A DNA stretch of 64,000 bases from Nanobdellota archaeon (GCA_021791655.1 JAJYWD010000001.1:98856-162855), one strand, 5' to 3'; counted from the stretch's first letter, positions 12,029 to 52,542 are shown. A program made the numbers and translations. The notes: generated by a model from the sequence alone, not told the origin.

Positions 12029-12047
12029 ATAGTTGTGATGCAAGTCG

Positions 12048-13377: not shown

Positions 13378-13484
13378 TATATCTAACCTGTAAATTTATT
13401 TTTGTTAAAGCTATTTAAATAAGTTAGTGTCTTAGTTTCTTATTCAAAAGTATTCCGAGACTTTTGATATTGGAGGGTTTGAAT

Positions 13485-15683: not shown

Positions 15684-17666
15684 GTGACCTCTGATATGGT
15701 TTTGCAGAAGAGGAGAACGCTGGATTTAGAAGATGTTCTAAAAAATCCAAGCGATGATAAGAACGTAAGTGAGTTGATTAGGAATGGTCTTTCCGTAGAC
15801 CATCTGGACATAACTATACGCGGTCTGCGCGAAGTGAAGAAGAACTTCGTAGAAGCCATATCAAAGGCGGAATTCATTTCTAAACAGGGCTACATACCCA
15901 TGATATTGCTGATTGGCCCGACCAGTAGCGGTAAGACGGTTATCGCCGAAACTTTAAGAGGGTTTTACTACACAAAACTGCAGGAAAACGCTTCTGTGTA
16001 CACACTTAGTATAAACAATAAAGTGTGCCCATACAAAGAAAGCCCTTACGATATTTTCAGATCGATGTTACCGTTCGATATAGAAGAAGTGGGGCTTAGC
16101 CAGCTGGATCGTAGTATACCTAGTGACGAGGGGGTTGCCGATATCAAGACTTACTCCGTACCGGAAGAGCAAAAGATAGGCATACCGGTTACCAGAAAAG
16201 GGCCGGAGCTGTGTGCTACGTGCAGGCATAATCTGGAGGACGCAATAAGAGAACGCAGAGAGGCTGACAAGGCAGGACAAGACACCAAGGAGAATAAAAC
16301 GAATATAGGCATAGTGGAAGCGTTCCCGCAAACTGCAACGGTCCAACTTAATGATGAGAAGCTACCAGACAAGTTCTATCAGATAATAACGAATGCGAAC
16401 AGAGGTTTCCTTCTTATAGGCGCAGACAAGAGCAGACTCAGTTCGATAAATCCTAGAACCTATCAGTTTTTGGTGGGTCTTTACGATAATACTCTATCGG
16501 ACCAGAACGGTAACAGGGTTCCACTTGACATGCTGGTTATAATAAATGCTAACGAGGACTTTTTTGCAGTGGGCGAGCACAAGAAGGAATTAGAGATCGA
16601 ATCCGCGACACCGTTGAAAGAAAGAATGATAATGGTAAAAGTCAGAAGAAACCTTTCGTACTCTGAAGAGGAGAAGATGTACCGGGATGCAAAGATACCT
16701 ATATCCAAAATGTTTCCAAGGGGACTCAAGTATCTCGCGATGACAAGCATCCTTTCAAGGATAGGTGAATCGGTGCTGTCCAGCGAAAGTGCTAGAGAAA
16801 ATTCGCTACTAAATGAGTTCAACAGAAATGTGTACGGGCGTGGCTCATCTTCTGACTCAGAAAGCAGAAATAATGACCAAATAGAGACAGTATTGACGGC
16901 CCTGAATCTTTATGACAGCGGTACGCTAAACAGGAGTAAAATAACCAAGCGACTTTCACAGCTCATAGGTAGCGGTGATTTGTATGAACAGATAGAGAGT
17001 TTGATATTTGAGGACGGGGAGTACAACAGCGGCTGGGATGAGGGCATCTCCTCGCGCTTTGTGATGAACCAGCTTACAACTAGAAAAACCGGCGAGTTTA
17101 ACTTCTCCGATTTGTACGCCTTTATGGAGGAAAACGGAGATAGCGGTTTATCCAGTAAGAAAGCTGAATTTATACGAAATGCATTGCGGGCCGATATCCG
17201 CTCGGATATAGACAAATCCCTGCTTTCATTTCTTTTCAAGACAATCGATCCTGACACGAGGAAATACGTCTCAATGCTGGAAAGAAGACTGGATTATATA
17301 GAACACGAAAAGGATCCCAATTCCAAAAAATTTGAGGACCCTGAAGATAACCTTGGTACGTTGTCGCGATTTATTGATACAGACGCGTTAAGAGGCTACA
17401 TTAATCAGTACAAAGAGATGAACGCGCCGATTGAGACATCGTTCAGCACAAATTTCGACTCTTTGCTCACGTTCGTATACAAGCGGCAGAAATCTTCTCT
17501 GCTGAAGAATTACGAGCTGATAACACGCGACCTTTTCGACAAGAACTCTGAAATGCACAAGTACATCAAGAAAGACCTAATAGACAATCATGGATACTGG
17601 GAAGAATCGTTCAAGGAAGCACTATCAATATATAAGAGTGGAGGTCTGGACGAGTATGACCAGTGA
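15684..17666 (+). CDS. PrkA/YeaG-family AAA+ ATPase, copy 2 (diverged)
   Basis: Walker A GPTSSGKT, CPYKESP, ANRG, LKERMIMVKVRRNLSYSEEEKMY, GISSRF and C-terminal HGYWEES. GTG start abuts the previous stop; alternative ATG at 15696. Confidence 0.8.
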   Translation: MTSDMVLQKRRTLDLEDVLKNPSDDKNVSELIRNGLSVDHLDITIRGLREVKKNFVEAISKAEFISKQGYIPMILLIGPTSSGKTVIAETLRGFYYTKLQENASVYTLSINNKVCPYKESPYDIFRSMLPFDIEEVGLSQLDRSIPSDEGVADIKTYSVPEEQKIGIPVTRKGPELCATCRHNLEDAIRERREADKAGQDTKENKTNIGIVEAFPQTATVQLNDEKLPDKFYQIITNANRGFLLIGADKSRLSSINPRTYQFLVGLYDNTLSDQNGNRVPLDMLVIINANEDFFAVGEHKKELEIESATPLKERMIMVKVRRNLSYSEEEKMYRDAKIPISKMFPRGLKYLAMTSILSRIGESVLSSESARENSLLNEFNRNVYGRGSSSDSESRNNDQIETVLTALNLYDSGTLNRSKITKRLSQLIGSGDLYEQIESLIFEDGEYNSGWDEGISSRFVMNQLTTRKTGEFNFSDLYAFMEENGDSGLSSKKAEFIRNALRADIRSDIDKSLLSFLFKTIDPDTRKYVSMLERRLDYIEHEKDPNSKKFEDPEDNLGTLSRFIDTDALRGYINQYKEMNAPIETSFSTNFDSLLTFVYKRQKSSLLKNYELITRDLFDKNSEMHKYIKKDLIDNHGYWEESFKEALSIYKSGGLDEYDQ

Positions 17667-18690
17667 AATAGGCGACGCCGGAGAAAAATACCGTGACAAG
17701 ATACGAGATGAGGACGACCTAGATGTTAGCTGGCAGGATCTGTATGACATTGTAAACGGAAAACCGGTTTATAGGAGCGTACCGGTCAAGTCAAACCCTA
17801 ACATAACGTTCGGCTCTGACACGTACGGCAACGGAGGTTCTGGTTCCGGTAATGGCGGGGGCCGGGGGGACAGCGGATGGACTGTTCTTGATCGCAGTGA
17901 TATTCTAGGCGTGGAAAAGAACTGGGGCATTAAGTTCACCAAGCGCGGTAAAAAAGAGAAAGTAACACTGGAGTTCTTGGTGGGTAAGAGAGGTTATCAG
18001 GAGAATCAGGACGAGACTCTGAAAGCGATGCTTGAGCGCCAGATAGCGACCGGCGAATACGATAAAAAAGGTTTTCACATAGACGTTCAGGAGGATGATG
18101 TAAGATACAACACCGTCGAAGAGAAAGCAAATCCCGAAGAGAGCGCACACTTCATAATAGTGCGGGATGTCAGCGGTTCTATGAGTACCACAGAAGAGCT
18201 CTCGTATAAGGCCGCCCTTTACATAGCTATAGGCTTGCAAGAAATGTACAAGGATAAGGTAACGCGCGTGTACGTAAGGCATGAGGATAGCGCCGAGGAG
18301 GTAAGCGAAGAGGACTTCTTTAAGACCGGCCCGGGTGGCGGCACTGCGTTCGGCCCGGCTTATAGGACCGTTCTTGCCATGCTTGAGGGAACAGAGTACA
18401 CCACGAAACTTAATTACCCTAGGAAGATAGATCACGAAGCCGAAGACGTTTACGTTCTGCACATAAGTGACGGTGGAAACTGGGGGGAACAGGACACCAG
18501 CGAGGCGGTGGACGCACTCGGAAAGATATTACCGAAGGTAACGCGATTCATGTACATGCAGATAGGCAATGAAAGCAATTTCGCAAACACTATGCGAGGC
18601 ATAACCAATGAAAAATTGAAAGTTATAACTACTGACAATGAACCGAGCATAGAGAATGTTAAAAAGGCGGTGACCGCACTGTTTAATTGA
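17656..18690 (+). CDS. DUF444 (YeaH/YhbH) family protein with VWA domain
   Basis: Gly-rich GNGGSGSGNGGGRG segment, EDDVRY, MIDAS DVSGSMS, GGTAFGPAY and HISDGGNW. GGAGG at 17640-17644. Confidence 0.85.
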   Translation: MTSEIGDAGEKYRDKIRDEDDLDVSWQDLYDIVNGKPVYRSVPVKSNPNITFGSDTYGNGGSGSGNGGGRGDSGWTVLDRSDILGVEKNWGIKFTKRGKKEKVTLEFLVGKRGYQENQDETLKAMLERQIATGEYDKKGFHIDVQEDDVRYNTVEEKANPEESAHFIIVRDVSGSMSTTEELSYKAALYIAIGLQEMYKDKVTRVYVRHEDSAEEVSEEDFFKTGPGGGTAFGPAYRTVLAMLEGTEYTTKLNYPRKIDHEAEDVYVLHISDGGNWGEQDTSEAVDALGKILPKVTRFMYMQIGNESNFANTMRGITNEKLKVITTDNEPSIENVKKAVTALFN

Positions 18691-18691
18691 C

Positions 18692-20263
18692 ATGGAAAAA
18701 GAATTGCCAGACATTATAGTAAAGGATGGTTCGCTTGAGGACGAGCGCTACACTAAGATTGCGCGGGATATCGCTGGTTTCGCCCTCAACAAGCTTAATC
18801 TATCATTCGGTAACGTTGAGTTTCGCCTGGTCGACAACGATACAATGGCAGAGCAGATGGCGCTTTATTCGGATCCCCTGCCAACCTGGTACACCGGCCA
18901 GGAATACGTTATGTCTAGACGTTCCTTGTTAGGTGTGCACTCCAGTCTTTACGAGATGGTGGGCCATACACAGTATAAGGCTTTGAACGATAAGGTGTAT
19001 ACGGTGGTTTACCTGAACAAAAACGACGAAGAGCACGAGATACGCGGCGTAATCGCCCACGTTTACGGGCACCTTCATGCCAACGCTAATAATTTCATAT
19101 GCAAGCAGTACTCGCAGGACCTCGGTCAACACGCAGCTTACAGAAGGAGATATAGGGCCCTTGAAGAGCTGGTGGGCAGGAAGGAGGTAGAGCGCGTTTT
19201 TGACTTGGGACAGACTTTGTCATCCCTAGTGGACCTGTACCCGGATTTCAGGGTAAAAAAAGAAGACAAGTATTACTCCAAAGACGAGAAGCTGCCAGAT
19301 AAGGACGAGTACGATGTATTCGGTTTCCTCATGAAGACCACACCAATGAGAGAGTGGGAGCGTGAGACACTTGAGATGGTGCGCGACATATACGCGCCAA
19401 TACGAGAAGTGAGAGTCCACATAATGCACGAAGGCTTCGCTACTTTCGTACAGGAAAAATACGCTTTGGAAGCAGCAAAGACCGACCCGGTAATGAGCAT
19501 GAAGATGGAGAAGCTAATCTATGACATAGCAACTCCGCTGAGCGAGGGACAATTGCCATACGCGATGGGGTTCAGATTGTTCAAAGACATAGAAAATCGA
19601 TGGAACAAGGGCAAACACGGCATAGAGTTTGAACTTCTTCCGGAAGAAGAGAAGAAAAATTTTGACAGTCACGAAAATAAGGGTCTTGAGAAGATATTGG
19701 AAGTTATGAAGTTCGGCACAGACTGGGACTTCCTGTTTTCATTCGCCGATGAAACTTTTATAAATAGTTATGTTAAGGAGGCTGTAGAGGAGGCAGAGGG
19801 CTACATGAGAAGAGAGATGGCCGGGGAGTATACTCCCGATCAGATAGAGGGTATACTGCCGTCCCAGCTTGAAATGTACAGGGAAAGCATGGACCCCGAT
19901 GAACTAAGATTTGAGCTCCTTCACCAGACGGAGAGTTATATGCCAACTCTTTACATACCGCGTGGCGGCGCCAACTATAAGGACGGTGTACTGATTAAGG
20001 AAGACCTCTCAGTGCTTGAGAGATACGTAACAGAAACAGACAGGGAAAAGCGCAAAGAGGAATTGGAGGAAATAAAATCCGGATTCGCGCCGTTCCTTAC
20101 ATTGAACAATGAGACCACCTATAAGGCGGTGAACAGGATTTCGAAATGGATTAATAAGCCAGTTTACCTAAAGACAATCGATGAAGATGGGTCTGACATA
20201 ACGATTTTTAGCAATGGCGAAGACGTGGACTTTGAATACGATGATGACGACGATTCCCACTAA
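18692..20263 (+). CDS. SpoVR (YcgB) family protein
   Basis: LYEMV, VIAHVYGH, IMHEGFATF, PYAMGFRLFKDIENRW and TDWDFL motifs; acidic tail. Confidence 0.85.
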   Translation: MEKELPDIIVKDGSLEDERYTKIARDIAGFALNKLNLSFGNVEFRLVDNDTMAEQMALYSDPLPTWYTGQEYVMSRRSLLGVHSSLYEMVGHTQYKALNDKVYTVVYLNKNDEEHEIRGVIAHVYGHLHANANNFICKQYSQDLGQHAAYRRRYRALEELVGRKEVERVFDLGQTLSSLVDLYPDFRVKKEDKYYSKDEKLPDKDEYDVFGFLMKTTPMREWERETLEMVRDIYAPIREVRVHIMHEGFATFVQEKYALEAAKTDPVMSMKMEKLIYDIATPLSEGQLPYAMGFRLFKDIENRWNKGKHGIEFELLPEEEKKNFDSHENKGLEKILEVMKFGTDWDFLFSFADETFINSYVKEAVEEAEGYMRREMAGEYTPDQIEGILPSQLEMYRESMDPDELRFELLHQTESYMPTLYIPRGGANYKDGVLIKEDLSVLERYVTETDREKRKEELEEIKSGFAPFLTLNNETTYKAVNRISKWINKPVYLKTIDEDGSDITIFSNGEDVDFEYDDDDDSH

Positions 20264-22674: not shown

Positions 22675-22773
22675 AGAATAGAATAATTTGCTGGTGGGTT
22701 AAATATTATTATGGGCGACAGGAATGTCATATTCTGCACAAAGTATTATAATACTTAGCTGGCTAATACACGT

Positions 22774-23973
22774 ATGGCTGCCAGCAAGGTAAAAGGCGTG
22801 AGGGGTTTCATGGGAGAAGAAGCCTTGGTGAGGGAAGACGCCATAAATAAGATAAGAGAGACTTACAAGCTGTTCGGATTTGAGCCGGTTGAGACACCGG
22901 CATTGGAACCTCTGTCACTGTTCACCGGCAAGTCCGGCAAGGAGATAGAAGAGCAGCTGTATCTTCTCGAGGACAAAAAGGGCGAAAAACTCGCGCTACG
23001 GCCCGAGCACACCATTTCCAAATTTAAGATTATCGCTGACAACAAGTCTATAATGAAGCCCTTTAAGACCTACAGCATAGGCAACGTGTGGAGGTACGAA
23101 AACCCGTCAAGCACGCACTTCAGGGAGTTCACGCAGTGCGATATTGATATATACTATGCCAAGGACATAGCATACGATGCGGAGATAATCGCCTGTCTTG
23201 ATTTCGCACTTAAGCGTCTCGGGATATCCGCGTACAAGATACATCTCAACAACAGAAAAATACTAAATAAACTGCTTCAGGATGTGGCTGTCCCCGTGGA
23301 ATCCGCAATGCAGGTTCTTAGGGAGATGGATAAAATAGATAAAGCGGGTATGGATACTGTGATTGGTAGAATTTCGGCGCTTATAGGTGCAGAGAAGGCA
23401 GCAGCAATCAAGGATTACATGGACGGCAAGCTGAAAATAGGGGGGGAAGGAGCTGAGGAACTTAACGGCCTGATAAGATACCTAAAAGCCTATAAAATAG
23501 ACAATTTTGTTGTGGACAACGCTTTGGTCAGAGGTCTCGATTACTATGACGGTAACGTGTTCGAATTCGTCTCGGAATTCGCCAAGGCTTCTATAGCCAG
23601 TGGTGGCAGGTATAATAAACTGGGAGAAAAACTGAGTGTGGTAATCCCAATGGTGGGCGGAAGCATAGGATTTGACAGAGTAGTGTCGGAAATGATTGCA
23701 AGCACAGCTGAAAAGGTGTTTGCAGGCAGATACTGCGTGATAAGCATCGGTGCGGATGAAAAAGCGATAGAAGTTGCTTCCAAGCTAAGGAACGAGGGCA
23801 TGGCGTGCGAACTACTGATGGGCGTTTTCCTGTCAAAGGCACTGGATTACTGCAATGCAAAGAAGATAAGGTACGCGGTAATGGTGGGCAAGAAAGAAGT
23901 GGAGAACGCAGAGGTTACGCTTAGGGACCTACAGCTCTCGTCCGATAGAAGGGTAAAAGAGAGCGAACTTTAA
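22774..23973 (+). CDS. hisS: Histidine--tRNA ligase
   Basis: LALRPEHT, WRYENP...FREFTQCD, VRGLDYY, GGRY and GSIGFDR; anticodon-binding domain. Confidence 0.95.
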   Translation: MAASKVKGVRGFMGEEALVREDAINKIRETYKLFGFEPVETPALEPLSLFTGKSGKEIEEQLYLLEDKKGEKLALRPEHTISKFKIIADNKSIMKPFKTYSIGNVWRYENPSSTHFREFTQCDIDIYYAKDIAYDAEIIACLDFALKRLGISAYKIHLNNRKILNKLLQDVAVPVESAMQVLREMDKIDKAGMDTVIGRISALIGAEKAAAIKDYMDGKLKIGGEGAEELNGLIRYLKAYKIDNFVVDNALVRGLDYYDGNVFEFVSEFAKASIASGGRYNKLGEKLSVVIPMVGGSIGFDRVVSEMIASTAEKVFAGRYCVISIGADEKAIEVASKLRNEGMACELLMGVFLSKALDYCNAKKIRYAVMVGKKEVENAEVTLRDLQLSSDRRVKESEL

Positions 23974-24019
23974 AGATTTTTAAATATTATAAAGGGGAAA
24001 GGGTCTAATTATTCTAGGT

Positions 24020-25048
24020 ATGAATAAATCCAACTGGACCATAAGGTCAAGGGCTCCTTTGAGAGTCAGCTTCGCCGGCGGAGGCACCGATATAAAGGAG
24101 TACTATGAGAAATACGGCGGCGTTGTAATCTCTTCGTCTATATCAAAATACGCGTACGCTACTCTTAGGCCGTTGAAAGACGGTAAATTCCGGATAAGGC
24201 AGGAGAATCTAGGCATAGACTACTCTGGTAAGATAAACGAGAAACTTACCGATACTCAGGAGCTCGGCTTCCTTAACGCTATAGTAAGACACTTTTCGCC
24301 AAAGGACGGCTTCGATCTCATAACGCACAGTGATGTAAACTATGGTTCTGGACTGGGCGCGTCGTCCACAATGATAGTTGCCATAGTAGGCGCGTTTAAC
24401 AAGTGGCTGAATTTAGATCTTGATCACTACGAGATTGCAGAGACCGCTTATAAAATAGAACGGGAGGATTTGGGGATTAAGGGCGGAGCACAGGATCAGT
24501 ACGCGGCTTCATTCGGAGGATTTAACTTCATAGAGTTCATGCGGGACGCAATAATAGTCAATCAGATGAGGCTCAAGCCGAGCACTATATACGATTTGCA
24601 GTTCAGACTCCTGATGGTGCACACGGGGTCTTCTCACTCGTCAAGCAGAATACTATCCACGCAGATAAACAAGCTCTCCGACAGTCAGCTGTTGGAACAC
24701 TACGATAGGTTGAAGCGCTTGGCAGTTGACGTAAAGGGCGCCCTCTACAAGGACGATCTTGATACTATTGGACCGTTACTAAAGCAGGAATGGGAAGAGA
24801 AGAAGCTGCTATCCCCTGGCATCAGCACAAAGGAAATCGAAAAGATAATAAACGTTGCTTATGAGAATGGTGCAAGCGGAGCCAAAGTGCTTGGAGCCGG
24901 TGGCGGTGGCTACGCACTTTTATTCACGGATGAGGACAACCGCTTCAGACTGGCTAACGCTATGCAGAAGCTTGGCGTAGAAGCGAATTATCCCGAATTC
25001 GATTATGGCGGGCTTGAGACATGGAGCCTCTATAAGAAGGGCCGTTAG
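24020..25048 (+). CDS. hddA: GHMP kinase, D-glycero-D-manno-heptose 7-phosphate kinase (HddA)-like
   Basis: APLRVSFAGGGTD, GSGLGASS, GGAQDQYAASFGGFNFIEF and GAGGGG. Confidence 0.82.
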   Translation: MNKSNWTIRSRAPLRVSFAGGGTDIKEYYEKYGGVVISSSISKYAYATLRPLKDGKFRIRQENLGIDYSGKINEKLTDTQELGFLNAIVRHFSPKDGFDLITHSDVNYGSGLGASSTMIVAIVGAFNKWLNLDLDHYEIAETAYKIEREDLGIKGGAQDQYAASFGGFNFIEFMRDAIIVNQMRLKPSTIYDLQFRLLMVHTGSSHSSSRILSTQINKLSDSQLLEHYDRLKRLAVDVKGALYKDDLDTIGPLLKQEWEEKKLLSPGISTKEIEKIINVAYENGASGAKVLGAGGGGYALLFTDEDNRFRLANAMQKLGVEANYPEFDYGGLETWSLYKKGR

Positions 25049-25932
25049 AGGCCGTAAAATTCTATCAGTTCGTCCATTCCTTTTTCCATGGGCATTTTGG
25101 GCGCTAGCCCTAAACTCTTTATCTTTTTGATGTCCGCGCGTGTGAACAGCTGGTAGCTCTTCAACGGATTTGGAACGTTTTCCACGCCGAATTTCAGCCC
25201 CTTTTTCTTAAATATCGCAAGTATCTCATTCCACGATATGGGGCTCCCAGTGCCGACGTTGAAAAGACCGTCGTACTCCTCGGCCAGCCTTAGTGTTATT
25301 TCTGCAGCGTCGGTTACATGTATGAAGTCCCGTCTTTGCGAGCCGTCCCCATACACCTTTACGCCGCCGTCACGCTTTATTGCCTCCAAGAACAAGGATA
25401 TTATGCTCTTGTAATCCCCTTTGTCATTCTCACCCACGCCATAAACGTTGAAGTATCTGATTACCGGCCCCTTTATGTACCCGTTAGCCACGTAACTGTT
25501 AAAAATCCTTTCGCCTACTATCTTTGACGTCGCGTACATGTTCCCCGTGTCTTTTATGATTTCATCCTCTCTGGATGCGCCGGTCGTATCCCCGTACACC
25601 GAAGACGAAGAAATGAAGACCACTCTTTTGACGTTCGATTTCCTGCAGGCTTCCAGGACATTTACAAGACCTATGCAGTTCACCTTAAAGCATCTGACCG
25701 GGTCTCTGAGGAATTCTACGTTCGAGGTTATTGCTGCCTCCAGTATCACTATATCGTACTTTCTGAAGTCTTGATCGGCCATGTCCCGGTCTGTTATGTC
25801 CTTTATTATGGTGTCAACGCCCAAGCTATTGCCGTTTATGTCAAGGACGGTGACGCGATGTCCTTTTTTATTCGCGGCCTTAACGACCCAGGAACCTATA
25901 AATCCAGAGCCTCCCACAACCAGTAAATTCAT
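25045..25932 (-). CDS. NAD-dependent sugar-nucleotide epimerase/dehydratase (HldD/GmhD-like)
   Basis: GGSGFIGS, SSSSVYG, YATSK, RYFNVYG and YQLFTRADI. GGAGG 6 nt upstream of ATG 25932. Confidence 0.85.
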   Translation of the reverse strand: MNLLVVGGSGFIGSWVVKAANKKGHRVTVLDINGNSLGVDTIIKDITDRDMADQDFRKYDIVILEAAITSNVEFLRDPVRCFKVNCIGLVNVLEACRKSNVKRVVFISSSSVYGDTTGASREDEIIKDTGNMYATSKIVGERIFNSYVANGYIKGPVIRYFNVYGVGENDKGDYKSIISLFLEAIKRDGGVKVYGDGSQRRDFIHVTDAAEITLRLAEEYDGLFNVGTGSPISWNEILAIFKKKGLKFGVENVPNPLKSYQLFTRADIKKIKSLGLAPKMPMEKGMDELIEFYGL

Positions 25933-26071
25933 ATCTTGCCTCCACTGCCCATGTTTTGTGTAAGTCAACGGTGCTAATATACTTTTTCGTAACACATCAT
26001 CCCGTGCAACCAATTAACAGTATACAGTTTAAATACGCCGGATGCACAGATTTCTAAATATTGCATAGTGT

Positions 26072-27085
26072 ATGGACATAACGTTGATAGTGGAGGATAC
26101 TGACCCCATAAAGCCCGGAAGTTCCAGGTATAATTTCGAGTTGTCAAAGATTGGAGCGCTAAGGAATGTTTTGAGCTTCTCCTCGGAGCTGAGCAATAAG
26201 GGAATAAATAACAAGCTTCTGAATAAACTGTATAGAAGGAAGGCATTCCTGAACAAGCATGCAAGCGAATTGGGTAGGGTTCTGCACTTCACCGAACCTG
26301 AAATAATGTTCAAGTCCAAACAGCTAAATGGCAGGAAAATAGTACTTACGGTTCACGATTTGGCAGTATTCGGTACGACAGAGTACACGAATCTGTATTG
26401 GAGACTGCGGGCTGCAGCATTCAGAAGGCAATTTGTGTATGACACAAAGAGGGCGGACTTAATCCTCGTCAACAGTTCACAGACCAAGAACGAGCTGATT
26501 GATAGACTGGGAACCGACGCCGGGAAAATACTTGTTACCAATCTAGGCGTGAGCTCCGATTTTAAGCCACTCCGGCGCCAGGTAAACCGCGTAATAGGCT
26601 ATTTCGGTGGCTTCAACCCCAGAAAGCGCGTGGGTAGACTTATAGAGGAATTTCGTAGTTCAAAGTTTTACCGCGATTATGAGCTTTGGCTTGCGGGCAG
26701 GGAAGATGGCGAATACTCGAGATTGCACAGGATGTACGGTAACGACAGCAAGATAAAGTTTATAGGTGGGGTAGCGGAAGCGAAGCTGCCATCCCTTATC
26801 TGCTCGTTCAAGTATCTGGTGATTCCATCCAAGTATGAGGGATTCGGGCTGCCGATAATAGAGAGTGTCGCCTGCGGCGTGCCGACTTTTATATACCGAG
26901 ACGCAGCGATACCAGAAGAGGTCGCGCACTACTCCGAAAAGATCTCTTCGCTGGAAGACATTGACCGTATTGATTATAGCGAACTCAGGGGCAGGTTCCT
27001 GCGGAAGTCTAAGAGAGTAAGGGAGGAATTCTCATGGGAAAGGCTTAGGACTCTAACTCTGAAGGCCTACAAGACCCTTCTCTAA
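26072..27085 (+). CDS. Glycosyltransferase, GT-B fold (GT4)
   Basis: TVHDL, RKRV and PSKYEGFGLPIIESVACGVP. Confidence 0.9.
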   Translation: MDITLIVEDTDPIKPGSSRYNFELSKIGALRNVLSFSSELSNKGINNKLLNKLYRRKAFLNKHASELGRVLHFTEPEIMFKSKQLNGRKIVLTVHDLAVFGTTEYTNLYWRLRAAAFRRQFVYDTKRADLILVNSSQTKNELIDRLGTDAGKILVTNLGVSSDFKPLRRQVNRVIGYFGGFNPRKRVGRLIEEFRSSKFYRDYELWLAGREDGEYSRLHRMYGNDSKIKFIGGVAEAKLPSLICSFKYLVIPSKYEGFGLPIIESVACGVPTFIYRDAAIPEEVAHYSEKISSLEDIDRIDYSELRGRFLRKSKRVREEFSWERLRTLTLKAYKTLL

Positions 27086-27095
27086 CCGCTCTCGG

Positions 27096-28427
27096 TCATT
27101 TCGTTATATCCGGAATCAAGAACCGTTCGTTTCCCTTGAATATGTCGATTTCCTGTAGGAGGTCTTCTGCGCCGGTTTTGTTGTCTTTTATTGGCACGTC
27201 TTTATTCCCCTTCATGAACTCTTCTATCGTCCCGTCCGTCCCGTTTACGGTCATTTTGAAGCCATTTTTATAAACGGTTTTTCGGACTTTCTCGTACGTA
27301 TTTTTAACGTAGTTCTTGCGGCGCTCGTAGCCACCTGGTAGTTCTATCACCGCACCGAAAGCCTCTGAGAACGTCGCCTCGTTCGTGAGCGGGGAATCGT
27401 CCCCGCCCTCTATAATGTTTTTTATTAACTTTGGTATACTAGTAAGGTTTTGGTAGCCTTTCTTTGTCTCGTAGCGCTTTCCGTGTGGGTACTTTACTAT
27501 CATCGGTATCCTGGTGAGTTCGTCGTAGAGGTACGTGCTGTGCAGCATGTACCCGTGCTCGTTCATGGCCTGTCCATGGTCGGAAGTTATTATTATCAGC
27601 GTGTCATCGTATAGGTCTTTGCTCTTCAGCGTCTTTACTAACCTACTCAGTGCACTGTCAAGGTACTCGATCTCGGCCATGTATTGGCTTTTTATCTCGC
27701 GTATGGACTTATCCCGCATCTTCCTTATGCCCGTTACGTTGTCCCACACTTCTTTAGATTTATAATGCTCATACGGTTCGTGCACCTCCATCAGGTTTAT
27801 GAATTTGAAAAATTTGCTTTCCCAGTTTCCGTTCGCTAATATCTTGTTTGTGAGGGCGGAGCCCTTATCCAGAGGGAAATTCAGTGCCCGCTCCATGCTT
27901 TTGTTCCTAAGCCAGAACTGGGCGAATTTTATAAGCTTGTCAACCTGTCCTTTCTTTAGTAGCGCCTTAGCTATTGCGCCGGGGCTAGCGCCGAGCTGTC
28001 TTGCTTCCTCAAAAGTCTTGTCCTTTTTACTTATGGGAAATGGGTCCAACGAAAAGAAAAAATCGAAGCCCACATCAAAGTACGTAACCGGTCCGACCAT
28101 TGGGTTGTTCGATATGCCTAGTGTGTTGTAGCCATTTCGCTTGAGGTATTCCGATATACGTTCCGCCCTTAATTCCACATTGAATTTTGTGAGCTTCAGC
28201 AGCTTCTCCGTCTTTGTCTCGTGTACCTTGTGCTCCCCCGGATAGAGACCGGTTAGAAGTGACACATGCGACGGAAATGTCCAAGATGACGGCGCTATTG
28301 CGTTCCTGTATACGACGGTCTCTTTTGAGAAGGCATTTAGAAACGGCGTCTTTGCGGAACCGCCGTACAAGCCCATAAGGTCCTGTCTGAGGGTGTCACA
28401 TACCACGAGCAATACGTTGGGCTCCAT
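27096..28427 (-). CDS. Alkaline-phosphatase/sulfatase-superfamily enzyme with Thr nucleophile
   Basis: CDTLR, WTFPSHVSLLTG, EVHEPY and TSDHG. Confidence 0.85.
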   Translation of the reverse strand: MEPNVLLVVCDTLRQDLMGLYGGSAKTPFLNAFSKETVVYRNAIAPSSWTFPSHVSLLTGLYPGEHKVHETKTEKLLKLTKFNVELRAERISEYLKRNGYNTLGISNNPMVGPVTYFDVGFDFFFSLDPFPISKKDKTFEEARQLGASPGAIAKALLKKGQVDKLIKFAQFWLRNKSMERALNFPLDKGSALTNKILANGNWESKFFKFINLMEVHEPYEHYKSKEVWDNVTGIRKMRDKSIREIKSQYMAEIEYLDSALSRLVKTLKSKDLYDDTLIIITSDHGQAMNEHGYMLHSTYLYDELTRIPMIVKYPHGKRYETKKGYQNLTSIPKLIKNIIEGGDDSPLTNEATFSEAFGAVIELPGGYERRKNYVKNTYEKVRKTVYKNGFKMTVNGTDGTIEEFMKGNKDVPIKDNKTGAEDLLQEIDIFKGNERFLIPDITK

Positions 28428-28554
28428 CTACGATTTAGCGTATTCCTTTCTTTTAAGCCTTAACTTTGCATTCGCTACTTGTACGGTAAACCGGTGCATA
28501 AAAAATCGCTTGTTTTGCACTATCTATTTATAATAGTTGTCGCCTTTTTTACAT

Positions 28555-29427
28555 ATGCAAAAACCGACTTCAAAGCCTACGACACATAATGCGCTTTCTG
28601 CGACGGAACTTAAGACACTGCGCCTCAAGGCGAATGAGATAAGACGGTGGGTCATAGAGATGGTTTTCAGTGCAAAATCAGGACACATAGGCGGTGCATT
28701 ATCGATTGCGGATGTCCTCTCTGTCTTATACTTCAAGGAGTTGAACGTAGATCCCAAAAACCCGAACTGGGATGGCAGAGACCGCTTGGCGCTTAGCAAG
28801 GGGCATGCATCCGCTGCTTATTATGCTGCGCTGGCTCTTAGAGGGTTTTTTCCCAAAGAGGAGCTTCTAACATTCAGGAAAATAAACTCTAAGCTCCAGG
28901 GTCACGCATACAAGGGGGTTCCGGGCGTGGATGTCAGTACTGGTTCTCTAGGACAAGGGATATGTGTCTCATTGGGCATGGCACTGGCCGCAAAGATGGA
29001 TGGAAAAAAGCACAGAGTTTACGCAATCATAGGTGATGGTGAATGTGATGAAGGGAGTGTGTGGGAAGCGGCATTAAACGCACCGTTTAGGAAACTTGAT
29101 AACCTTACGGTCATACTGGATAGGAACGAGTTCCAAAACGACGGTTCTATGTACAATATATTGGATACTGGAAGCATGGAGGACAAGTTTTCGTCATTCG
29201 GCTGGAATGTTATTTCAATAGACGGTCATGACATGCAGCAGATAGTAGACGCGATAGAGGAAGCGAGGGAAGCAAAGAGCAAACCCTCGGTGATAGTCGC
29301 ACACACGATAAAAGGGAAAGGTGTATCCTTCATGGAGAACAACGGCTCATTTCACGGCAAGCCTCCAACGGAAGACGAGTTCGAGAAGGCGATAGCCGAG
29401 CTCGATGAAGCGAGGTCAAAGATATGA
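28555..29427 (+). CDS. tktA: Transketolase, N-terminal (ThDP-binding) subunit
   Basis: SGHIGGALS, LSKGH, STGSLGQG and GDGECDEG. ATG at 28555 preferred. Confidence 0.95.
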   Translation: MQKPTSKPTTHNALSATELKTLRLKANEIRRWVIEMVFSAKSGHIGGALSIADVLSVLYFKELNVDPKNPNWDGRDRLALSKGHASAAYYAALALRGFFPKEELLTFRKINSKLQGHAYKGVPGVDVSTGSLGQGICVSLGMALAAKMDGKKHRVYAIIGDGECDEGSVWEAALNAPFRKLDNLTVILDRNEFQNDGSMYNILDTGSMEDKFSSFGWNVISIDGHDMQQIVDAIEEAREAKSKPSVIVAHTIKGKGVSFMENNGSFHGKPPTEDEFEKAIAELDEARSKI

Positions 29428-30350
29428 ACGTAGAAAGTCAGCGCGTGGCGTACGGCGAAGAACTTGCAAAGCTGGGTGAAAAGTACAAAGATCTTGTAGT
29501 TTTAGACGCCGATTTGTCGACTTCAACACATACGTACATGTTCGGCAACAAGTATCCAGACAGGTTCTTCAATCTCGGCATAGACGAACAGAATATGATG
29601 GGGATGGCTGCCGGTTTGGCGCTCTCAGGAAAGCTGGTTTTCGCGAGTACGTTCGCAATATTCGCTACTGGCAGGGCTTACGACCTTGTTAGGCAGAGTA
29701 TCGCTTACAATCGCGCCAATGTTAAGATCGTAGTAACACACGCAGGTCTCACCCTCGGAGAGGACGGTGCTACCCATCAGATGCTTGAGGACATCAGTCT
29801 TATGTGCGGTCTGCCGGGAATGACGGTTATAGCGCCTGCGGATGCGCCAGAGACAAGACGCGTTATACACGCGGTGACTGAAATGGACGGGCCGTGTTAT
29901 GTCAGACTTAGTAGGGAGAAAGTCCCTTCCATACTGGAAGACCGGCAATTCAAGATAGGCAAAGGAATCATTGTGGAAGACGGGGCCGATGTTTCAATAT
30001 TCTCTACAGGTATAACGCTCAATATCGCGCTGCAAGCTAGAGAAGAGCTAAAGAAGACGGGCGTCAGCGCAGCAGTACTACACATGCCTACAATAAAACC
30101 CATAGACAAGGAAATGATAATAACCTCCGCAAAGAAAACCGGAAGAGTCATAACAGTAGAAGAGCACAGTATATACGGCGGATTGGGCTCGCGCATAGCT
30201 GAGGTACTCGGGGAGAATTATCCTGCGAGGTTGCAAAGAATTGCTGTGAGAGACAAGTTCGGCGAATCTGGGAAAGGCTGGGAACTCCTGGAAAAATACG
30301 GCATAAGTTCGAATGAAATAGTAAGACACGCGAATGAGATGATGGGGTGA
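29424..30350 (+). CDS. tktB: Transketolase, C-terminal subunit
   Basis: [15 protein letters not shown] and TVEEHS; 4-bp overlap with tktA. Confidence 0.95.
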
Positions 30351-30355
30351 AATGT

Positions 30356-31006
30356 ATGAAGATATTTTTAGACACTGCGAATGTGGATGATATACGAGAA
30401 GGGGTCAGCTGGGGGATTGTTGACGGAGTAACGACCAATCCTACGCTCGCGTCTAAAGAAGCCGGAAATCGTACCTTCTGGGACATAGCCAAAGAGATAA
30501 TAAACATAGTGCAGGGACCGGTCAATCTGGAGGTTACGGCACTCGATGCGGATGGCATGGTGAAGGAAGGAAAGAAACTGGCCGCTATGGGAAAGAACGT
30601 CGTTGTAAAAATCCCCATGACCGTAGAGGGATTGAAGGCTATCGTCAGGTTAAAGAAGCTAGGCATAAAGACGAACACCACGCTCATCTTCAACAGTAAC
30701 CAGGCTCTGCTGGCCGCCAAAGCGGGCACAGACTACGTGTCTCCTTTTGTGGGCAGACTGGACGACATAGGAGAGAGTGGCATGCAAATCGTCAAGGATA
30801 TCCTGCAGATCTTCCTTAATTACGGAATAAAGACCGAAATAATAGTTGCGAGCGTTAGGCACCCAGTGCACGTACAGGAAGCGGCATTACTGGGAGCCGA
30901 TATTGCAACGGTGCCCTTTTCTATCCTGAAAATGCTGGTAAAGCACCCCAAGACCGACGAGGGACTTGCCAAATTCTTGGAAGACTGGAAGAAAGTCAAA
31001 GTATAA
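30356..31006 (+). CDS. tal: Transaldolase (TalC/FSA type)
   Basis: [19 protein letters not shown] and [11 protein letters not shown]. Confidence 0.93.
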
Positions 31007-31010
31007 CCCT

Positions 31011-31472
31011 ATGTCTAGAAAAGCGGTGTTTGTAGACCGTGACGGTACCATAAATCGCGACTGTCCGTACTGCCATGATCCGAAAGATTTAAAGATATAC
31101 GAAGACACGGCTAACATACTTAAGCGCTATCAGGAGGAGGGATACCTGATAATAATAGTGACGAACCAATCCGGCATAAATCGGGGCTATCTCTCGGAGG
31201 AAGAATTCAACAGGTTCCAGAAAGCAGTGCTTGGTGAACTGGATAAGAGGGGCGTGCACGTTGTGGCCACTTATCACTGTCCCCATACACCGTGGGAAGG
31301 TTGCAGTTGCCGAAAACCGAATATAGGACTAATTGAGCAAGCACGCAAGGACTTTGACATCGATCTTAGGGGCTCGGTAATGATAGGCGATAACGACGCC
31401 ACGGACGGCGAACTGGCCAAGAAATTGGGCATAAAGTGCATAATCCTAGATAAGAACCGACAAGGAAATTAA
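31011..31472 (+). CDS. gmhB: D-glycero-D-manno-heptose 1,7-bisphosphate phosphatase (GmhB)-like HAD
   Basis: DRDGTIN, VTNQSGI, CPH....CSCRKP zinc site and MIGD. ATG at 31011. Confidence 0.85.
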   Translation: MSRKAVFVDRDGTINRDCPYCHDPKDLKIYEDTANILKRYQEEGYLIIIVTNQSGINRGYLSEEEFNRFQKAVLGELDKRGVHVVATYHCPHTPWEGCSCRKPNIGLIEQARKDFDIDLRGSVMIGDNDATDGELAKKLGIKCIILDKNRQGN

Positions 31473-31540
31473 TAGTCGAGCATGAGGAATACCTCGGAAC
31501 TACAAAATTTGGGCGATTTTATGCATTTCTTGCCAGAATA

Positions 31541-31563
31541 TTATTCCTTAATATAAGGAATAA
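31541..31563. repeat. Perfect inverted repeat in the gmhB-sua5 spacer
   Basis: TTATTCCTTA-ATA-TAAGGAATAA, 10-bp arms. Confidence 0.6.
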
Positions 31564-31719
31564 CAAAATTACGAAATACACTACCGCCACTCCCGCTATT
31601 ATTCCCATACTCTACACCTTCCACATTGATTATATGATACTAACTTACATAAATAATTTTCCATGCGTTATGTTTCCTTACATTTAACGTTTTTATACAC
31701 GGAATCCGAGATTTCACCA

Positions 31720-32760
31720 ATGATATTGAAGACTAATCCGTTAGATCCGAACCCAGAAAACATAGCCGTGGCCGCCGATGCAATAAAGAGGGGCGAGCTG
31801 GTTGCATTTCCTACTGAAACCGTGTACGGGCTTGGTGCGGATGCAACCAACTCAGTCGCGTGTTCAAAAATATTCGAAGCAAAGGGTCGTCCGAATGATA
31901 ATCCTCTGATAGTCCATGTTTGTTCTCTCGAAATGGCGGATAAGTTCGCTCATATCCCCGAAGAGTTCCGCCACGTAATAGAGAGAATTTGGCCGTCTCC
32001 CATAACCTTCATAGTGAATAAAAAAAGAGGATTATCCGACCTAGCTACGGCCGGACTCGACACCGTGGGACTAAGAATGCCGGCGCACAAAATTGCCCTC
32101 AAACTAATAGAAGAGGCAGGAGTTCCGCTAGCTGCGCCGAGCGCCAACAAATCCGGGAGACCATCACCTACAACGGCCGGCGATGTAATCGAGGATTTGG
32201 ATGATAGCATCGGCGTGGTGTTAGATGGTGGTCCCTCATTTTTCGGCGTAGAATCTACGATAATAGACCTTCGCAGTTTTACCGTAGTAAGACCTGGGCC
32301 ATTTACACCAGAAGAGATAGCCGAGAAGTTCGGCCGTACGCCGCTGATGTTAAAGGACACCGAATCACTGGTTAAGCCGATAAGCCCCGGTCTAAAGTAC
32401 AGGCACTACGCACCGGTCACACCCCTTTTCCTGTTCGCTGGAGATGTTAGTAGACTAAAGCAGATGTCGGGCGGAGAAAAGAGGATTGCATTCTTGGGTT
32501 CTGAAGAGAGCTGTTCACGCATAGATAGCACTAGCATAGAAAAGATCGCGATGGGCAGCGATAAGGATTTGTATAGCATAGCTAGAAACCTGTTCGGTTC
32601 GCTGAGAAAGCTGGACGAGCTGCACGTTAATCTCGGTCTGATAGAGCCTTTCGAGGAGGGAGGTATAGGATTTGCGATAATGAACAGGGTGCGGAAAGCC
32701 GCAGGCGGACGGACCATCTCGGACTCCGCAGAACTGGCGTCTTTATCTTTGGAGACATAA
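31720..32760 (+). CDS. sua5: L-threonylcarbamoyladenylate synthase (Sua5 type)
   Basis: AFPTETVYGLGA, KGRPNDNPLIVH, APSANKSG and PGLKYRHYAP; Sua5 C-terminal domain. ATG at 31720. Confidence 0.95.
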   Translation: MILKTNPLDPNPENIAVAADAIKRGELVAFPTETVYGLGADATNSVACSKIFEAKGRPNDNPLIVHVCSLEMADKFAHIPEEFRHVIERIWPSPITFIVNKKRGLSDLATAGLDTVGLRMPAHKIALKLIEEAGVPLAAPSANKSGRPSPTTAGDVIEDLDDSIGVVLDGGPSFFGVESTIIDLRSFTVVRPGPFTPEEIAEKFGRTPLMLKDTESLVKPISPGLKYRHYAPVTPLFLFAGDVSRLKQMSGGEKRIAFLGSEESCSRIDSTSIEKIAMGSDKDLYSIARNLFGSLRKLDELHVNLGLIEPFEEGGIGFAIMNRVRKAAGGRTISDSAELASLSLET

Positions 32761-32770
32761 TTAGGAGTGT

Positions 32771-33325
32771 ATGGACAAGGAACTGATATTCGTAAGCACC
32801 AATGCACACAAAGCCGAAGAGATTATCAGTCTCGGCAGAAAACACGGCATAAAAATAAACCCTGTCTTGGGAGAAAAACTGGAGATACAAGCTATTGATA
32901 CGAGAGACGTAGCGAGGACCGCTGCAATAATGCTTTTTAACAGCATAAGGAAGCCCATGTTCGTGGACGATTCAGGCCTGTTTATAGATGCCCTTGATGG
33001 GTTCCCCGGTGCGATTGCACACTTTGTCAGCAAATCCTCCGTGCTTAATATGCTCAGCGGCGTGAAGAACAGGGATGCGCACTTCAAGACTTCGATTTGC
33101 TATGTGGACGAGGACGTGGCGAAAATATTCGAGGGCACCGTAAGCGGCAGAATTGCGTCCGAGCCCCAGGGCGATAGGGCATTCGGGTTCGACTCCCTAT
33201 TTATCCCGATTGGAGAAGAAAAGACATTCGCACAGATGAGCATAGAAGAGAAAAGCAAATACTCGCACAGGGCGAGGGCGTTCGAAAAACTTGCAAAATA
33301 CGTTTTGGACGGTAAAGTCTTATAA
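32771..33325 (+). CDS. rdgB: Non-canonical purine NTP pyrophosphatase (Ham1/RdgB)
   Basis: STNAHK, DDSGL, GFPG, FGFDSLF and KYSHRARA. Confidence 0.93.
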   Translation: MDKELIFVSTNAHKAEEIISLGRKHGIKINPVLGEKLEIQAIDTRDVARTAAIMLFNSIRKPMFVDDSGLFIDALDGFPGAIAHFVSKSSVLNMLSGVKNRDAHFKTSICYVDEDVAKIFEGTVSGRIASEPQGDRAFGFDSLFIPIGEEKTFAQMSIEEKSKYSHRARAFEKLAKYVLDGKVL

Positions 33326-33354
33326 TTGCTGGCGTTGTTATAAACTTGTAATTT

Positions 33355-33948
33355 ATGATAGTTGTAGACATAGAAACTAGCGGGCTAGATCCTACAAAGA
33401 ACTCAATCCTGAGCATAGGTGCTATCGAATTCGAAAGGCCTTCAAACCAGTTCTATGACGAGTGTCGTGCGCGAGAGGGGTCGGAGATAGAGGCGTCGGC
33501 ACTAGCTATAAATGGTTTCACGCGAGATGGGGCTCTCTCCAATAAGAAGAGCGTTAAGGAACTGTTGCTGGGATTTCAGGCGTGGCTACAGACCACTGGC
33601 GATAGGACTATTGCGGGACACAATGTCTCGTTCGACGTGTCATTCCTAGAATTCTCTTCTAAATTGTACGGAATTAATCTCGGCTTGGGACATAGGAATG
33701 TTGATACGCACGCCTTAACATACGCAAGTTACATGAAGCGCGGTATGAAACCACCGACGAAGTCGAGTAAGTCGGACATAAACTCCGATGCGGTTCTCGC
33801 ATATTGCGGCCTGCCAGCAGAGCCAAAGCCGCACAATGGCCTTGTCGGTGCGAAAATGGAAGCCGAAGCGCTCTCGCGACTGATTCTCGGCAGACTGCTG
33901 TTTAAAGAGTACTCTGGTTTTGGAGTCCCAGACTACCTGCTCTTATAA
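33355..33948 (+). CDS. DnaQ-like 3'-5' exonuclease (DEDDh-like)
   Basis: ExoI DIETSG, ExoII GHNVSFD and ExoIII-like PHNG. Confidence 0.85.
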   Translation: MIVVDIETSGLDPTKNSILSIGAIEFERPSNQFYDECRAREGSEIEASALAINGFTRDGALSNKKSVKELLLGFQAWLQTTGDRTIAGHNVSFDVSFLEFSSKLYGINLGLGHRNVDTHALTYASYMKRGMKPPTKSSKSDINSDAVLAYCGLPAEPKPHNGLVGAKMEAEALSRLILGRLLFKEYSGFGVPDYLLL

Positions 33949-41040: not shown

Positions 41041-41757
41041 ATGGATATAAAACCGGAACACATAAAACTAAAAAAAGGACAGATTGCAGAGAGGCTGTTG
41101 GTTGCTGGTGATACCCAGAGAATACATGTCCTGTCCAGCATTTTAGAGGATGCAAAGCTGCTCAATGAATACAGGTATATCGTGTACACTGGAAAGTACA
41201 AAGGAAAGCCGGTGAGCCTGATGTCGCATGGGATAGGCGCCCCTTCGGCCGCAATAGCCATCGAAGAGGCACACGCTCTGGGTGCTAATAAGATAATACG
41301 GTTGGGTACAACCGGTGGATTGTTAAAAGAGATGAAATACGGCGACCTAATAGTGCCTACAGCCGCCGGATTTGACAAGGGTGGCGTGATAGGCGCTTAC
41401 ATAAAAGGTGTCAATATCGCGCCTGCGCCGGATTTGCAGTTGACGAATGCAATAGTAAATGAGCTTGGCAGTAGAAAAGATACCTATTTCGTCGGGCCTG
41501 TTTATTCCGCTGATGGCTTTTATCGGGAAGATGGCCTTGTGAAAAAACTTAGCAGCCTCGGTTTTGTATCTGTTGAAATGGAATGCGCAACACTTTTCAT
41601 GCTTGGTCAATTACGCGGTTTCAAAAGTGCTTCCATACTCATAATGGTGGACAATAGGGTAAATCCTGCGATGCAAGAATTTTTGGCAGTTAAGGAAATG
41701 AACCGGTTCGCAAAAATCGCCGCAGAGACCGCCCTTAATGCACTGGTAAGCGATTGA
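41041..41757 (+). CDS. Purine/uridine nucleoside phosphorylase (NP-I family)
   Basis: GDTQR, HGIGAPSA, IRLGTTG and VEMECA. Confidence 0.9.
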   Translation: MDIKPEHIKLKKGQIAERLLVAGDTQRIHVLSSILEDAKLLNEYRYIVYTGKYKGKPVSLMSHGIGAPSAAIAIEEAHALGANKIIRLGTTGGLLKEMKYGDLIVPTAAGFDKGGVIGAYIKGVNIAPAPDLQLTNAIVNELGSRKDTYFVGPVYSADGFYREDGLVKKLSSLGFVSVEMECATLFMLGQLRGFKSASILIMVDNRVNPAMQEFLAVKEMNRFAKIAAETALNALVSD

Positions 41758-43042: not shown

Positions 43043-43597
43043 TCAGCTTTCATGGTTCTCCAGCAAACAGTTTATTATCCTGTACGTTATGCCCCACACC
43101 GTGTAATCCTTGTACACGTAGGCATCTTCGATCCTTTCTTTTACGCCATCAGAAAACCTATATCTCTGTTTTGCGGAGTCGGTTTTCAAATAATCCAAAG
43201 GAACGAGCTTGAAAGAGTTCACTTCATTTCTGTTGACTACTACGGTCGGCTTGTCGTCTACTAAAAATACCCCTGGAATCACGCACAAGTCCGCAACGTT
43301 TGTTTTGAACGCCGGCATATAACCTACAAATTCCTCTTTGTGCAACTCGACTCCTATCTCCTCCCTGCTCTCTCTGATAGCGGTATCCAAAGAAGTGGCA
43401 TCACCCACCTCCCTGCGCCCTCCAGGCAGAGCTATCTGTCCGGACCACTTATCTTCGTCTCTTTTCGCGCGTTCTATAAACAGAATAGAGGGAACTGGTT
43501 TTTGCACTATTATCACCGAAACGCTTGCGGTCTTATCTGCGCTTGGTTTAGGCTCTTCCGCGCTTAGAACGTAGTCTATCCCGCTTATCGCTTTCAT
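43043..43597 (-). CDS. Nudix hydrolase, CoA pyrophosphatase-like
   Basis: WSGQIALPGG...TAIRESREEIG and VWGIT. Confidence 0.9.
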   Translation of the reverse strand: MKAISGIDYVLSAEEPKPSADKTASVSVIIVQKPVPSILFIERAKRDEDKWSGQIALPGGRREVGDATSLDTAIRESREEIGVELHKEEFVGYMPAFKTNVADLCVIPGVFLVDDKPTVVVNRNEVNSFKLVPLDYLKTDSAKQRYRFSDGVKERIEDAYVYKDYTVWGITYRIINCLLENHES

Positions 43598-48465: not shown

Positions 48466-48517
48466 TGAGTGGCGCTTTTGATGTGCGCCGCTTGAATACA
48501 GCTATAGGAGGTTGGCG

Positions 48518-52029: not shown

Positions 52030-52542
52030 ATGAAAAATTTCGGAATAAGGTATGACGCACTGTACAAAGAGTGCATGCAGCTTGCAACAAATTCCCGCAG
52101 CACAATTGTCCGTTTCGGTAGCGTGGTCGTAAAAGACGGAAAGATAATCGGGAGGGGCTGGAACGTATTTGCAAATCAGAAAAAACTGGGAAAACTTCCG
52201 ATAGTTATGGGATACGCAAACCACGCCGAGGTATCGGCCATGAACGACGCGCTGAACAACGGGTACAGCTTGGAAGGGGCCGACGTTTACGTGGCGGGTT
52301 ATTTCCCCAATGACAACAGTCTTTACATACCGCGTGATGCGTATTTCACGTGTACGCGATGCCCTACATACTTCGATAGATACAAAATAAATTCTGTATC
52401 CGTACCTTTATACCAGCGCTGGTCTAGGCTAGACGTATCAGAGGCGAAAGAAAGTGCTAAGACCTTCATGGGCAGAAGCCAGGAGCGAAGGATTGCCGTG
52501 GGCAAGACGCACTTTAGCTTGGACGATGTGCTCTCCGCATAG
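52030..52542 (+). CDS. Zinc-dependent cytidine/dCMP-deaminase-fold protein
   Basis: GSVVVKDGKIIGRGWN, HAE and CTRC. Confidence 0.82.
   Translation: MKNFGIRYDALYKECMQLATNSRSTIVRFGSVVVKDGKIIGRGWNVFANQKKLGKLPIVMGYANHAEVSAMNDALNNGYSLEGADVYVAGYFPNDNSLYIPRDAYFTCTRCPTYFDRYKINSVSVPLYQRWSRLDVSEAKESAKTFMGRSQERRIAVGKTHFSLDDVLSA

Follow-up and report, generated by a model that had tools for sequence, protein, structure and literature searches.

Does an archaeon of the DPANN group make a heptose-containing surface glycan, and is the heptose drawn from pentose-phosphate metabolism encoded at the same locus? This question is raised by positions 24020-31472 of a stretch of 64,000 nucleotides from a Nanobdellota archaeon (GCA_021791655.1, JAJYWD010000001.1:98856-162855; the whole stretch is referred to as the window). 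An initial annotation had read these positions as a heptose-glycan cluster, in which an HddA-like kinase, an HldD-like epimerase, a GT4 glycosyltransferase and a sulfatase-fold enzyme are followed by genes for transketolase (tkt), transaldolase (tal) and a GmhB-like phosphatase, so that the cluster would possess its own supply of sedoheptulose-7-phosphate (S7P). We analysed the genes with Pfam and NCBIfam models, ranked structures by PDB search, and compared related metagenomic loci (L numbers). The scans of open reading frames (ORFs) and domains agreed with the earlier list, and all eight genes are real, lie where they had been placed and have strong family matches. Our best explanation, to which we give an even chance, is a partial route to nucleotide diphosphate (NDP)-heptose, in which an HddA-type kinase works with a GmhB-type phosphatase that is placed in a tkt/tal operon beside a small patch of glycan genes, while the isomerase and the nucleotidyltransferase would be located elsewhere.

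The kinase and the tkt-tal-phosphatase unit

The assignment of the first gene as an HddA-like kinase is well borne out. HddA is its top NCBIfam model and is matched over the full length, with 277 bits against an equivalog cut-off of 600. The four best PDB matches are heptokinases with 209-246 bits, including 4n3o, 3k85 and 4usk (Burkholderia WcbL), whereas the next family in this ranking, fucokinase, reaches 72 bits. Judged by these matches, membership in the heptose-7-phosphate kinase clade is robust, and it holds at clade level only. A relative of 46% identity, P0029 (573 aa), is a fusion of the kinase to a GmhA SIS domain and is directly followed by a GmhB-like HAD phosphatase and a GT4 gene in a bacterial cluster, so that the kinase clade is linked to GmhA as well as to GmhB. 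The pair of kinase and GT4 recurs in L008/L009, where a GT4 of 51% identity directly follows the kinase ortholog.

A scan of the genome collection with the kinase as query gave three loci, too small a number for a phyletic survey. Among the related loci, that of P0029 (L018/L019:8001-11467) lies on a bacterial contig of 62% GC amid CotS/YutH-like spore-coat kinase genes, a setting that suggests a heptose-modified spore surface. In L015:11064-12041 and L100:8950-9924 a second GHMP kinase of ~30% identity stands in tandem with the HddA-like kinase; this paralog is absent from the window.

The transketolase is confirmed as a split enzyme, whose two adjoining subunits, encoded by tktN and tktC, jointly span the model NF004559 (Table 1). 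The short transaldolase (Tal) is 66% identical to the enzyme of Thermoplasma acidophilum (3S0C), with the segments LEV, VVKIP and SPFVGR aligned, and retains the positions of the catalytic Glu, the Schiff-base Lys and the Phe. In the literature on the T. acidophilum enzyme and fructose-6-phosphate aldolase (TaTal/FSA), this last position is the distinguishing one, with Phe in transaldolase and Tyr in the aldolase. By its family score, this identity and these residues the gene product is a genuine transaldolase, an enzyme that interconverts S7P and glyceraldehyde-3-phosphate with erythrose-4-phosphate and fructose-6-phosphate. While the transketolase of T. acidophilum is likewise divided into an N- and a C-terminal subunit, the locus differs from this type of tkt-tal arrangement by the GmhB-like HAD gene behind tal, which is found neither in the loci L020/21 and L023 nor with the HAD orthologs of Thermoplasmata.

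The tktN and tktC frames share 4 nt (ATGA). The gap from tktC to tal is 5 nt, which turns into a 4-nt overlap if tal starts at its GTG, and the HAD gene follows tal in the same orientation after a gap of 4 nt. The earlier description of these genes as a single tight co-directional unit is thus correct. The spacing argues for co-transcription of tktN-tktC-tal-HAD, and the TATA-like box TTTATAAT in front of tktN may represent its promoter.

Two features that mark the GmhB/HisB-N branch, a DxD motif and a CxH...CxC zinc loop, are present in the HAD protein (PMC9798254). It passes domain-level models only, and its scores with the GmhB equivalog and subfamily models stay below the cut-offs (140 vs 178, 115 vs 150 and 129 vs 250). 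The PDB search gives 83 bits for E. coli GmhB and 68.5 bits for HisB-N. Identity to the HAD protein of a tal-gmhA-gmhB operon in L060 is 37%, and the closest homologs (55-65% identity) belong to Thermoplasma, Cuniculiplasma and other Thermoplasmata. As to the gmhB label, motifs and domain models support the GmhB/HisB-N type; the equivalog cut-offs do not support the label, and the motifs are common to HisB-N. Most likely the protein is a candidate heptose-1,7-bisphosphate 7-phosphatase of GmhB type.

A HisB-N-type histidinol-phosphate phosphatase, which the initial annotation had named as the adverse case, is highly improbable. HisB-N trails GmhB by only ~15 bits in the structure ranking, and the spacing of 5 residues between CxH and CxC equals that of E. 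coli HisB-N, compared to 12 in E. coli GmhB (PMC9798254). However, the 5-residue spacing also occurs in the HAD protein of the L060 operon and is hence not discriminating; its use to separate GmhB from HisB-N was dropped for this reason. The model TIGR01261 (hisB_Nterm) yields 84 against a cut-off of 140, and his genes were not found among the window ORFs scanned. A role in histidine synthesis is also unlikely because HisB-N is limited to gamma-/epsilon-Proteobacteria and Bacteroidetes (PMC9798254), known archaeal histidinol-phosphate phosphatases carry a different, large helical cap (PMC10804674), and Parvarchaeota are reported to be without amino-acid biosynthesis (PMC5864196).

Alternatively, the co-orientation of the HAD gene with tal at such a short distance could reflect a bisphosphatase of the pentose-phosphate or gluconeogenic network, which would act on sedoheptulose-1,7-bisphosphate or fructose-1,6-bisphosphate and not in heptose glycan synthesis. 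The side activity of E. coli GmhB (YaeD) on fructose-1,6-bisphosphate counts for this function. Since Parvarchaeota are reported to lack gluconeogenesis, an unrecognised fructose-1,6-bisphosphatase would in addition fill a gap (PMC5864196). However, tal and HAD are not associated in this way in the operons of tkt and tal from the nearest relatives of Tal, nor among the HAD relatives, and in L060 GmhA intervenes between tal and the related HAD gene. We consider a bisphosphatase of this kind to be unlikely.

In favour of a heptose route, heptose-bearing glycans are established in the community of this organism: the N-glycan of T. acidophilum contains D-glycero-D-galacto-heptose, the density of the Cuniculiplasma pilin glycan fits that structure (PMC11407970, PMC12448462), and Iplasma, an archaeon from acid mine drainage (AMD), possesses a full ADP-heptose cluster (PMC3750248). 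A phosphatase that sits apart from the kinase, as in our locus, has a precedent in C. jejuni, whose GmhB is unlinked from the hddA cluster (PMC10680097). The locus resembles the GDP-heptose pathway (GmhA-HddA-GmhB-HddC) in its HddA-family GHMP kinase, its candidate GmhB-type HAD-IIIA phosphatase, and the SDR and glycosyltransferase genes nearby, but differs from it by the lack of GmhA and HddC in 64 kb, by the position of the phosphatase inside a tkt/tal operon and by its occurrence in a DPANN organism. Common to it and the ADP-heptose route (HldE/HldD) are a phosphatase resembling GmhB and an SDR, here with the HldD epimerase as its top NCBIfam model. In contrast to that route, HldE is absent, the kinase is of GHMP (HddA) and not of ribokinase type, and the SDR misses the HldD cut-off and is nearer to 4-epimerases.

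We propose that the locus comprises two modules. The first would consist of four separately transcribed genes for a sugar of the surface or of a glyco-conjugate. The second, the tktN-tktC-tal-HAD operon, would run the non-oxidative branch of the pentose-phosphate pathway (PPP) by means of transketolase and transaldolase, with S7P as an intermediate, and its HAD protein would convert heptose-1,7-bisphosphate, the predicted product of the kinase, to heptose-1-phosphate. Both modules together would provide S7P and cover the second and third of the four steps to NDP-heptose, while step 1 (GmhA) and step 4 (a nucleotidyltransferase) would be encoded elsewhere, the latter step perhaps being performed by a promiscuous GlmU-like enzyme. 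We infer the enzyme substrates and the coupling to a glycan; the family-level identity of the genes, the geometry of the operon, the taxon and the gene surroundings in relatives are observed.

Missing steps and gene order in relatives

Several findings weigh against a dedicated heptose pathway at this locus. By Pfam, no SIS domain, and with it no GmhA, was detected in window ORFs of at least 150 aa, and tblastn of the window gave zero matches to the SIS domain of P0029 (E<=10) and to the GmhA of L060 (E<=1). Likewise, three short NTP-transferases of related loci, used as tblastn queries, revealed no short (~230 aa) guanylyltransferase of HddC type in the 64 kb, and there is no PMM in the window. 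The window covers two of the four NDP-heptose steps, and the missing GmhA is the one that consumes S7P. The claim of NDP-heptose synthesis within the cluster is therefore supported at most for the kinase and, as a candidate, for the phosphatase, and is not supported for GmhA and HddC within 64 kb. Kinase, HAD and SDR each score below the NCBIfam equivalog cut-offs, and the identity of the HAD protein to E. coli GmhB (33%) hardly differs from that to HisB-N (31%). Three metatranscriptome runs of the same mine-drainage study contained zero contigs matching positions 22700-33400.

The gene order points in the same direction. The first four genes (kinase, SDR, GT4, sulfatase-fold) alternate in the order +,-,+,-, and therefore form four separate transcription units and no operon with tkt, from which the divergent sulfatase-fold gene separates them. 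The linkage is moreover absent in all close relatives examined: in four lineages with kinase relatives (L006/7, L008/9, L015, L100/101) zero tkt, tal or HAD genes lie within 10 kb, tal is never adjacent to the HAD relatives on five contigs (L010-L014), and the tkt-tal operons closest to ours (L020/21, L023) stop at tal. HAD orthologs in Thermoplasmata are mostly stand-alone. Of the HAD relatives compared, those of L010-12 stand alone and those of L013/14 lie beside GT4, PIG-L deacetylase and GlmS/GlmM/GlmU genes. The linkage of tkt/tal and gmhB, for which the initial annotation had suggested a check in other genomes, is thus repeated neither by the kinase relatives nor by the HAD relatives, and the arrangement of the window is lineage-specific and not conserved.

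These observations can be accommodated by a chance neighbourhood, in which tktN-tktC-tal would constitute an ordinary non-oxidative PPP, the HAD protein a housekeeping sugar-phosphate phosphatase, and kinase, SDR and GT4 an unrelated glycan pathway. The PPP would then channel ribose-5-phosphate from scavenged nucleosides to glycolysis, or bypass phosphofructokinase. In favour of such a function, genes for nucleoside phosphorylase, cytidine deaminase and DeoC occur in the window, and the tkt and tal genes of DPANN archaea have already been interpreted as part of central carbon metabolism (PMC8407392). On the other side, two genes of a four-step pathway would fall within 7 kb of a genome of ~1 Mb by chance in only ~1-2% of cases, a value that is inferred and not computed. 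The HAD protein, furthermore, bears the specialised zinc loop of GmhB/HisB-N and not a generic HAD cap, and operons of tal with gmhA, or with gmhA and gmhB, exist in other archaea. We regard mere coincidence as possible but rather doubtful; should it apply, the locus would represent ordinary central metabolism beside an ordinary glycosylation patch.

The tal-gmhA operons came from a survey of 80 metagenomic loci with Tal relatives of 54-66% identity, of which 59 had enough downstream sequence. The order tktN-tktC-tal was seen in ~7 of the 80, and in 3 of the 59 (L024, L059 and L060, representing only two lineages) gmhA follows immediately after tal. L024:2435-3686 has tal-gmhA beside a Dpm1-like GT2 and two small 4-TM proteins, whereas L059/L060 (L060:2009-3785) have tal-gmhA-gmhB on a contig that is archaeal since Gins51 is encoded on it too. 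Coupling of transaldolase and heptose genes hence occurs independently in archaea; no description of a tal-gmhA/gmhB operon was found in the open-access literature. These operons share with our locus the direct succession of tal and heptose genes in overlapping or nearly touching frames, and the logic of joining S7P supply to heptose synthesis. They differ in that they contain GmhA, which the window lacks, and no adjacent tkt in the available sequence. For the proposed coupling of PPP and heptose synthesis there is accordingly a precedent, but neither a conserved linkage nor the S7P-consuming step in the window; the locus may hint at an unusual link of heptose genes to the supply of their precursor. 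Taken as a whole, the interpretation given by the initial annotation is supported in part.

Some observations were made alongside these comparisons. The genes for nucleoside phosphorylase, DeoC (which passes its NCBIfam cut-off), cytidine deaminase and a NUDIX hydrolase are found among positions 41041-41757, 48512-49261, 52030-52542 and 43043-43597, and such a nucleoside-scavenging set would feed pentose phosphates to tkt/tal. In L013:10001-18687 and L014:9561-18289, where a kinase ortholog is present too, the HAD ortholog lies by GT4, a PIG-L-family deacetylase, an APH-like kinase and GlmS-GlmM-GlmU-like genes, a layout which recalls glycoconjugate pathways with GlcN. The GlmU-like enzyme of the window is its sole nucleotidyltransferase. 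It is encoded 11 kb upstream and scores 214 with TIGR03992 (Arch_glmU; cut-off 292), and its use as a stand-in for HddC is speculative. It is paired with a gene matching Pfam 'CofD' (both within 11105-13277, - strand) that is YvcK-like, a UDP-GlcNAc-binding family, and does not belong to F420 biosynthesis.

The organism and the origin of the operon

The thermosome gene of the window (2159-3796) encodes a protein with 84-85% identity to proteins labelled Candidatus Parvarchaeota or Parvarchaeum acidiphilum ARMAN-4. An exact copy of the kinase sequence is also carried by contigs of GCA_027335275.1 and by several metagenome contigs from mine drainage and sediment, and the closest kinase relatives are labelled Parvarchaeota or Nanoarchaeota. 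The source organism is an ARMAN-4-like archaeon of the Parvarchaeota (DPANN) from acid mine drainage, and the assumption of a DPANN genome made by the initial annotation was right. A source among Thermoplasmata or Nitrososphaeria, to which the HAD matches and the PrkA/CofD-like genes might point, is excluded by the thermosome identity.

Tal (66%) and HAD (55-65%) have their best relatives in Thermoplasmata, in contrast to the Parvarchaeota-like thermosome, and pentose-phosphate genes were scarce in Parvarchaeota according to a published survey (PMC5864196). By both findings the tkt-tal-HAD block may have been acquired horizontally, and the pattern suggests a transfer from the host lineage. It is conceivable, but quite unlikely, that the Parvarchaeote took tktN-tktC-tal-gmhB from its Thermoplasmatales host lineage and combines it with an HddA-type kinase, an SDR and a GT4 of its own, so that a heptose surface glycan resembling the heptose-bearing N-glycan of Thermoplasma and Cuniculiplasma would result. 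The symbiont would then possess an S7P supply for the display of a host-like sugar in attachment or mimicry; any role in host recognition is speculation.

If kinase and phosphatase do make heptose-1-phosphate, a DPANN archaeon would spend scarce genome space on a heptose glycan, and one enzyme of the pathway would be tied to the operon from which the precursor comes. Thermoplasmatales are known partners of acid-mine nano-archaea and have a heptose N-glycan, so that the locus would offer a testable handle on the surface relation of symbiont and host by two easily assayed enzymes, the kinase and the phosphatase.

Neighbouring genes

Table 1. Features of the locus and the upstream GlmU-like gene. 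Positions are counted from the first nucleotide of the window. The start of tktN is the choice of the gene callers; the length of the SDR also comes from gene callers, while its mechanical ORF reaches 26013.
Feature	Position	Strand	Evidence
Archaeal GlmU-like sugar-1-phosphate nucleotidylyltransferase/acetyltransferase, 409 aa	12048-13277	-	Pfam NTP_transferase, Hexapep
GHMP kinase, HddA/WcbL-family heptokinase	24020-25048	+	Pfam GHMP N and C domains; NCBIfam HddA
Extended SDR, NDP-sugar epimerase/reductase type, 295 aa	25045-25932	-	Pfam Epimerase 171 bits; GxxGxxG and YxxxK read in translation
GT4 glycosyltransferase, 337 aa	26072-27085	+	Pfam Glycos_transf_1, Glyco_transf_4
Alkaline-phosphatase-superfamily (sulfatase-fold) enzyme, soluble	27096-28427	-	Pfam Sulfatase 125 bits, Phosphodiest 69 bits
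Divergent intergenic region, sulfatase-fold gene/tktN	28428-28554		A/T-rich TATA-like box TTTATAAT ~25-30 nt before tktN ATG
Transketolase N-terminal (thiamine-diphosphate-binding) subunit, tktN	28555-29427	+	Pfam Transketolase_N 200 bits; NF004559 positions 6-283/627
Transketolase C-terminal (pyrimidine-binding and C-terminal domain) subunit, tktC	29424-30350	+	Pfam Transket_pyr, Transketolase_C; NF004559 positions 320-624/627
Short TalC/subfamily-5 transaldolase, tal	30356-31006	+	TIGR00875 305 vs cut-off 246 (passed)
HAD-IIIA phosphatase, GmhB/HisB-N type, 153 aa	31011-31472	+	TIGR01656, TIGR01662 passed; DxD and CxH-5-CxC zinc loop

The label 'HldD-like' for the SDR could not be maintained. 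The protein scores 148 with heptose_epim TIGR02197 (cut-off 275), 97 with PRK11150 (cut-off 452) and 110 with a GalE model, and in the PDB search 4-epimerases of the GalE/PelX type (~103-107 bits) rank above HldD (~82-84 bits). HldD is an enzyme of the ADP-heptose route and stands outside the HddA route, and HldE is not encoded in the window. By these scores the SDR is not specifically HldD and is equally GalE/4-epimerase-like.

Of the description 'sulfatase-fold enzyme' the fold is supported by the Pfam match, while a sulfatase function is not. The protein resembles the formylglycine-dependent sulfatases (PF00884) in overall fold and in its metal-binding N-terminal motif, but has T-F-P-S-H in place of C-x-P-x-R, aligning with C-A-P-S-R of iduronate-2-sulfatase (formylglycine motif C-x-P-S-R). 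Since Thr replaces the formylglycine Cys, the product is not a sulfatase, and a reading as a sulfatase linked to sulfated glycans was dismissed; probably it is a Thr-nucleophile phospho(di)esterase or phosphotransferase. An N-terminal membrane segment is absent. In L015, an ortholog of 59% identity is found close to that of the kinase.

The locus is flanked by housekeeping genes, HisRS on the upstream side and, downstream, Sua5, Ham1 and an RNase T-like exonuclease. Further upstream (13464-20263, + strand), a four-gene set of PrkA-PrkA-DUF444-SpoVR has HisRS and the HddA-like kinase as neighbours, and this neighbourhood is kept in three Parvarchaeota-type lineages (the window, L015:12067-18682 and L100:11188-17999). 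A ComA-like gene of the phosphosulfolactate synthase family is present at 47605-48465 (+ strand; Pfam 207 bits, but well short of the equivalog cut-off for archaeal ComA), which we note beside the fact that the Thermoplasma N-glycan bears a C-sulfonated sugar.

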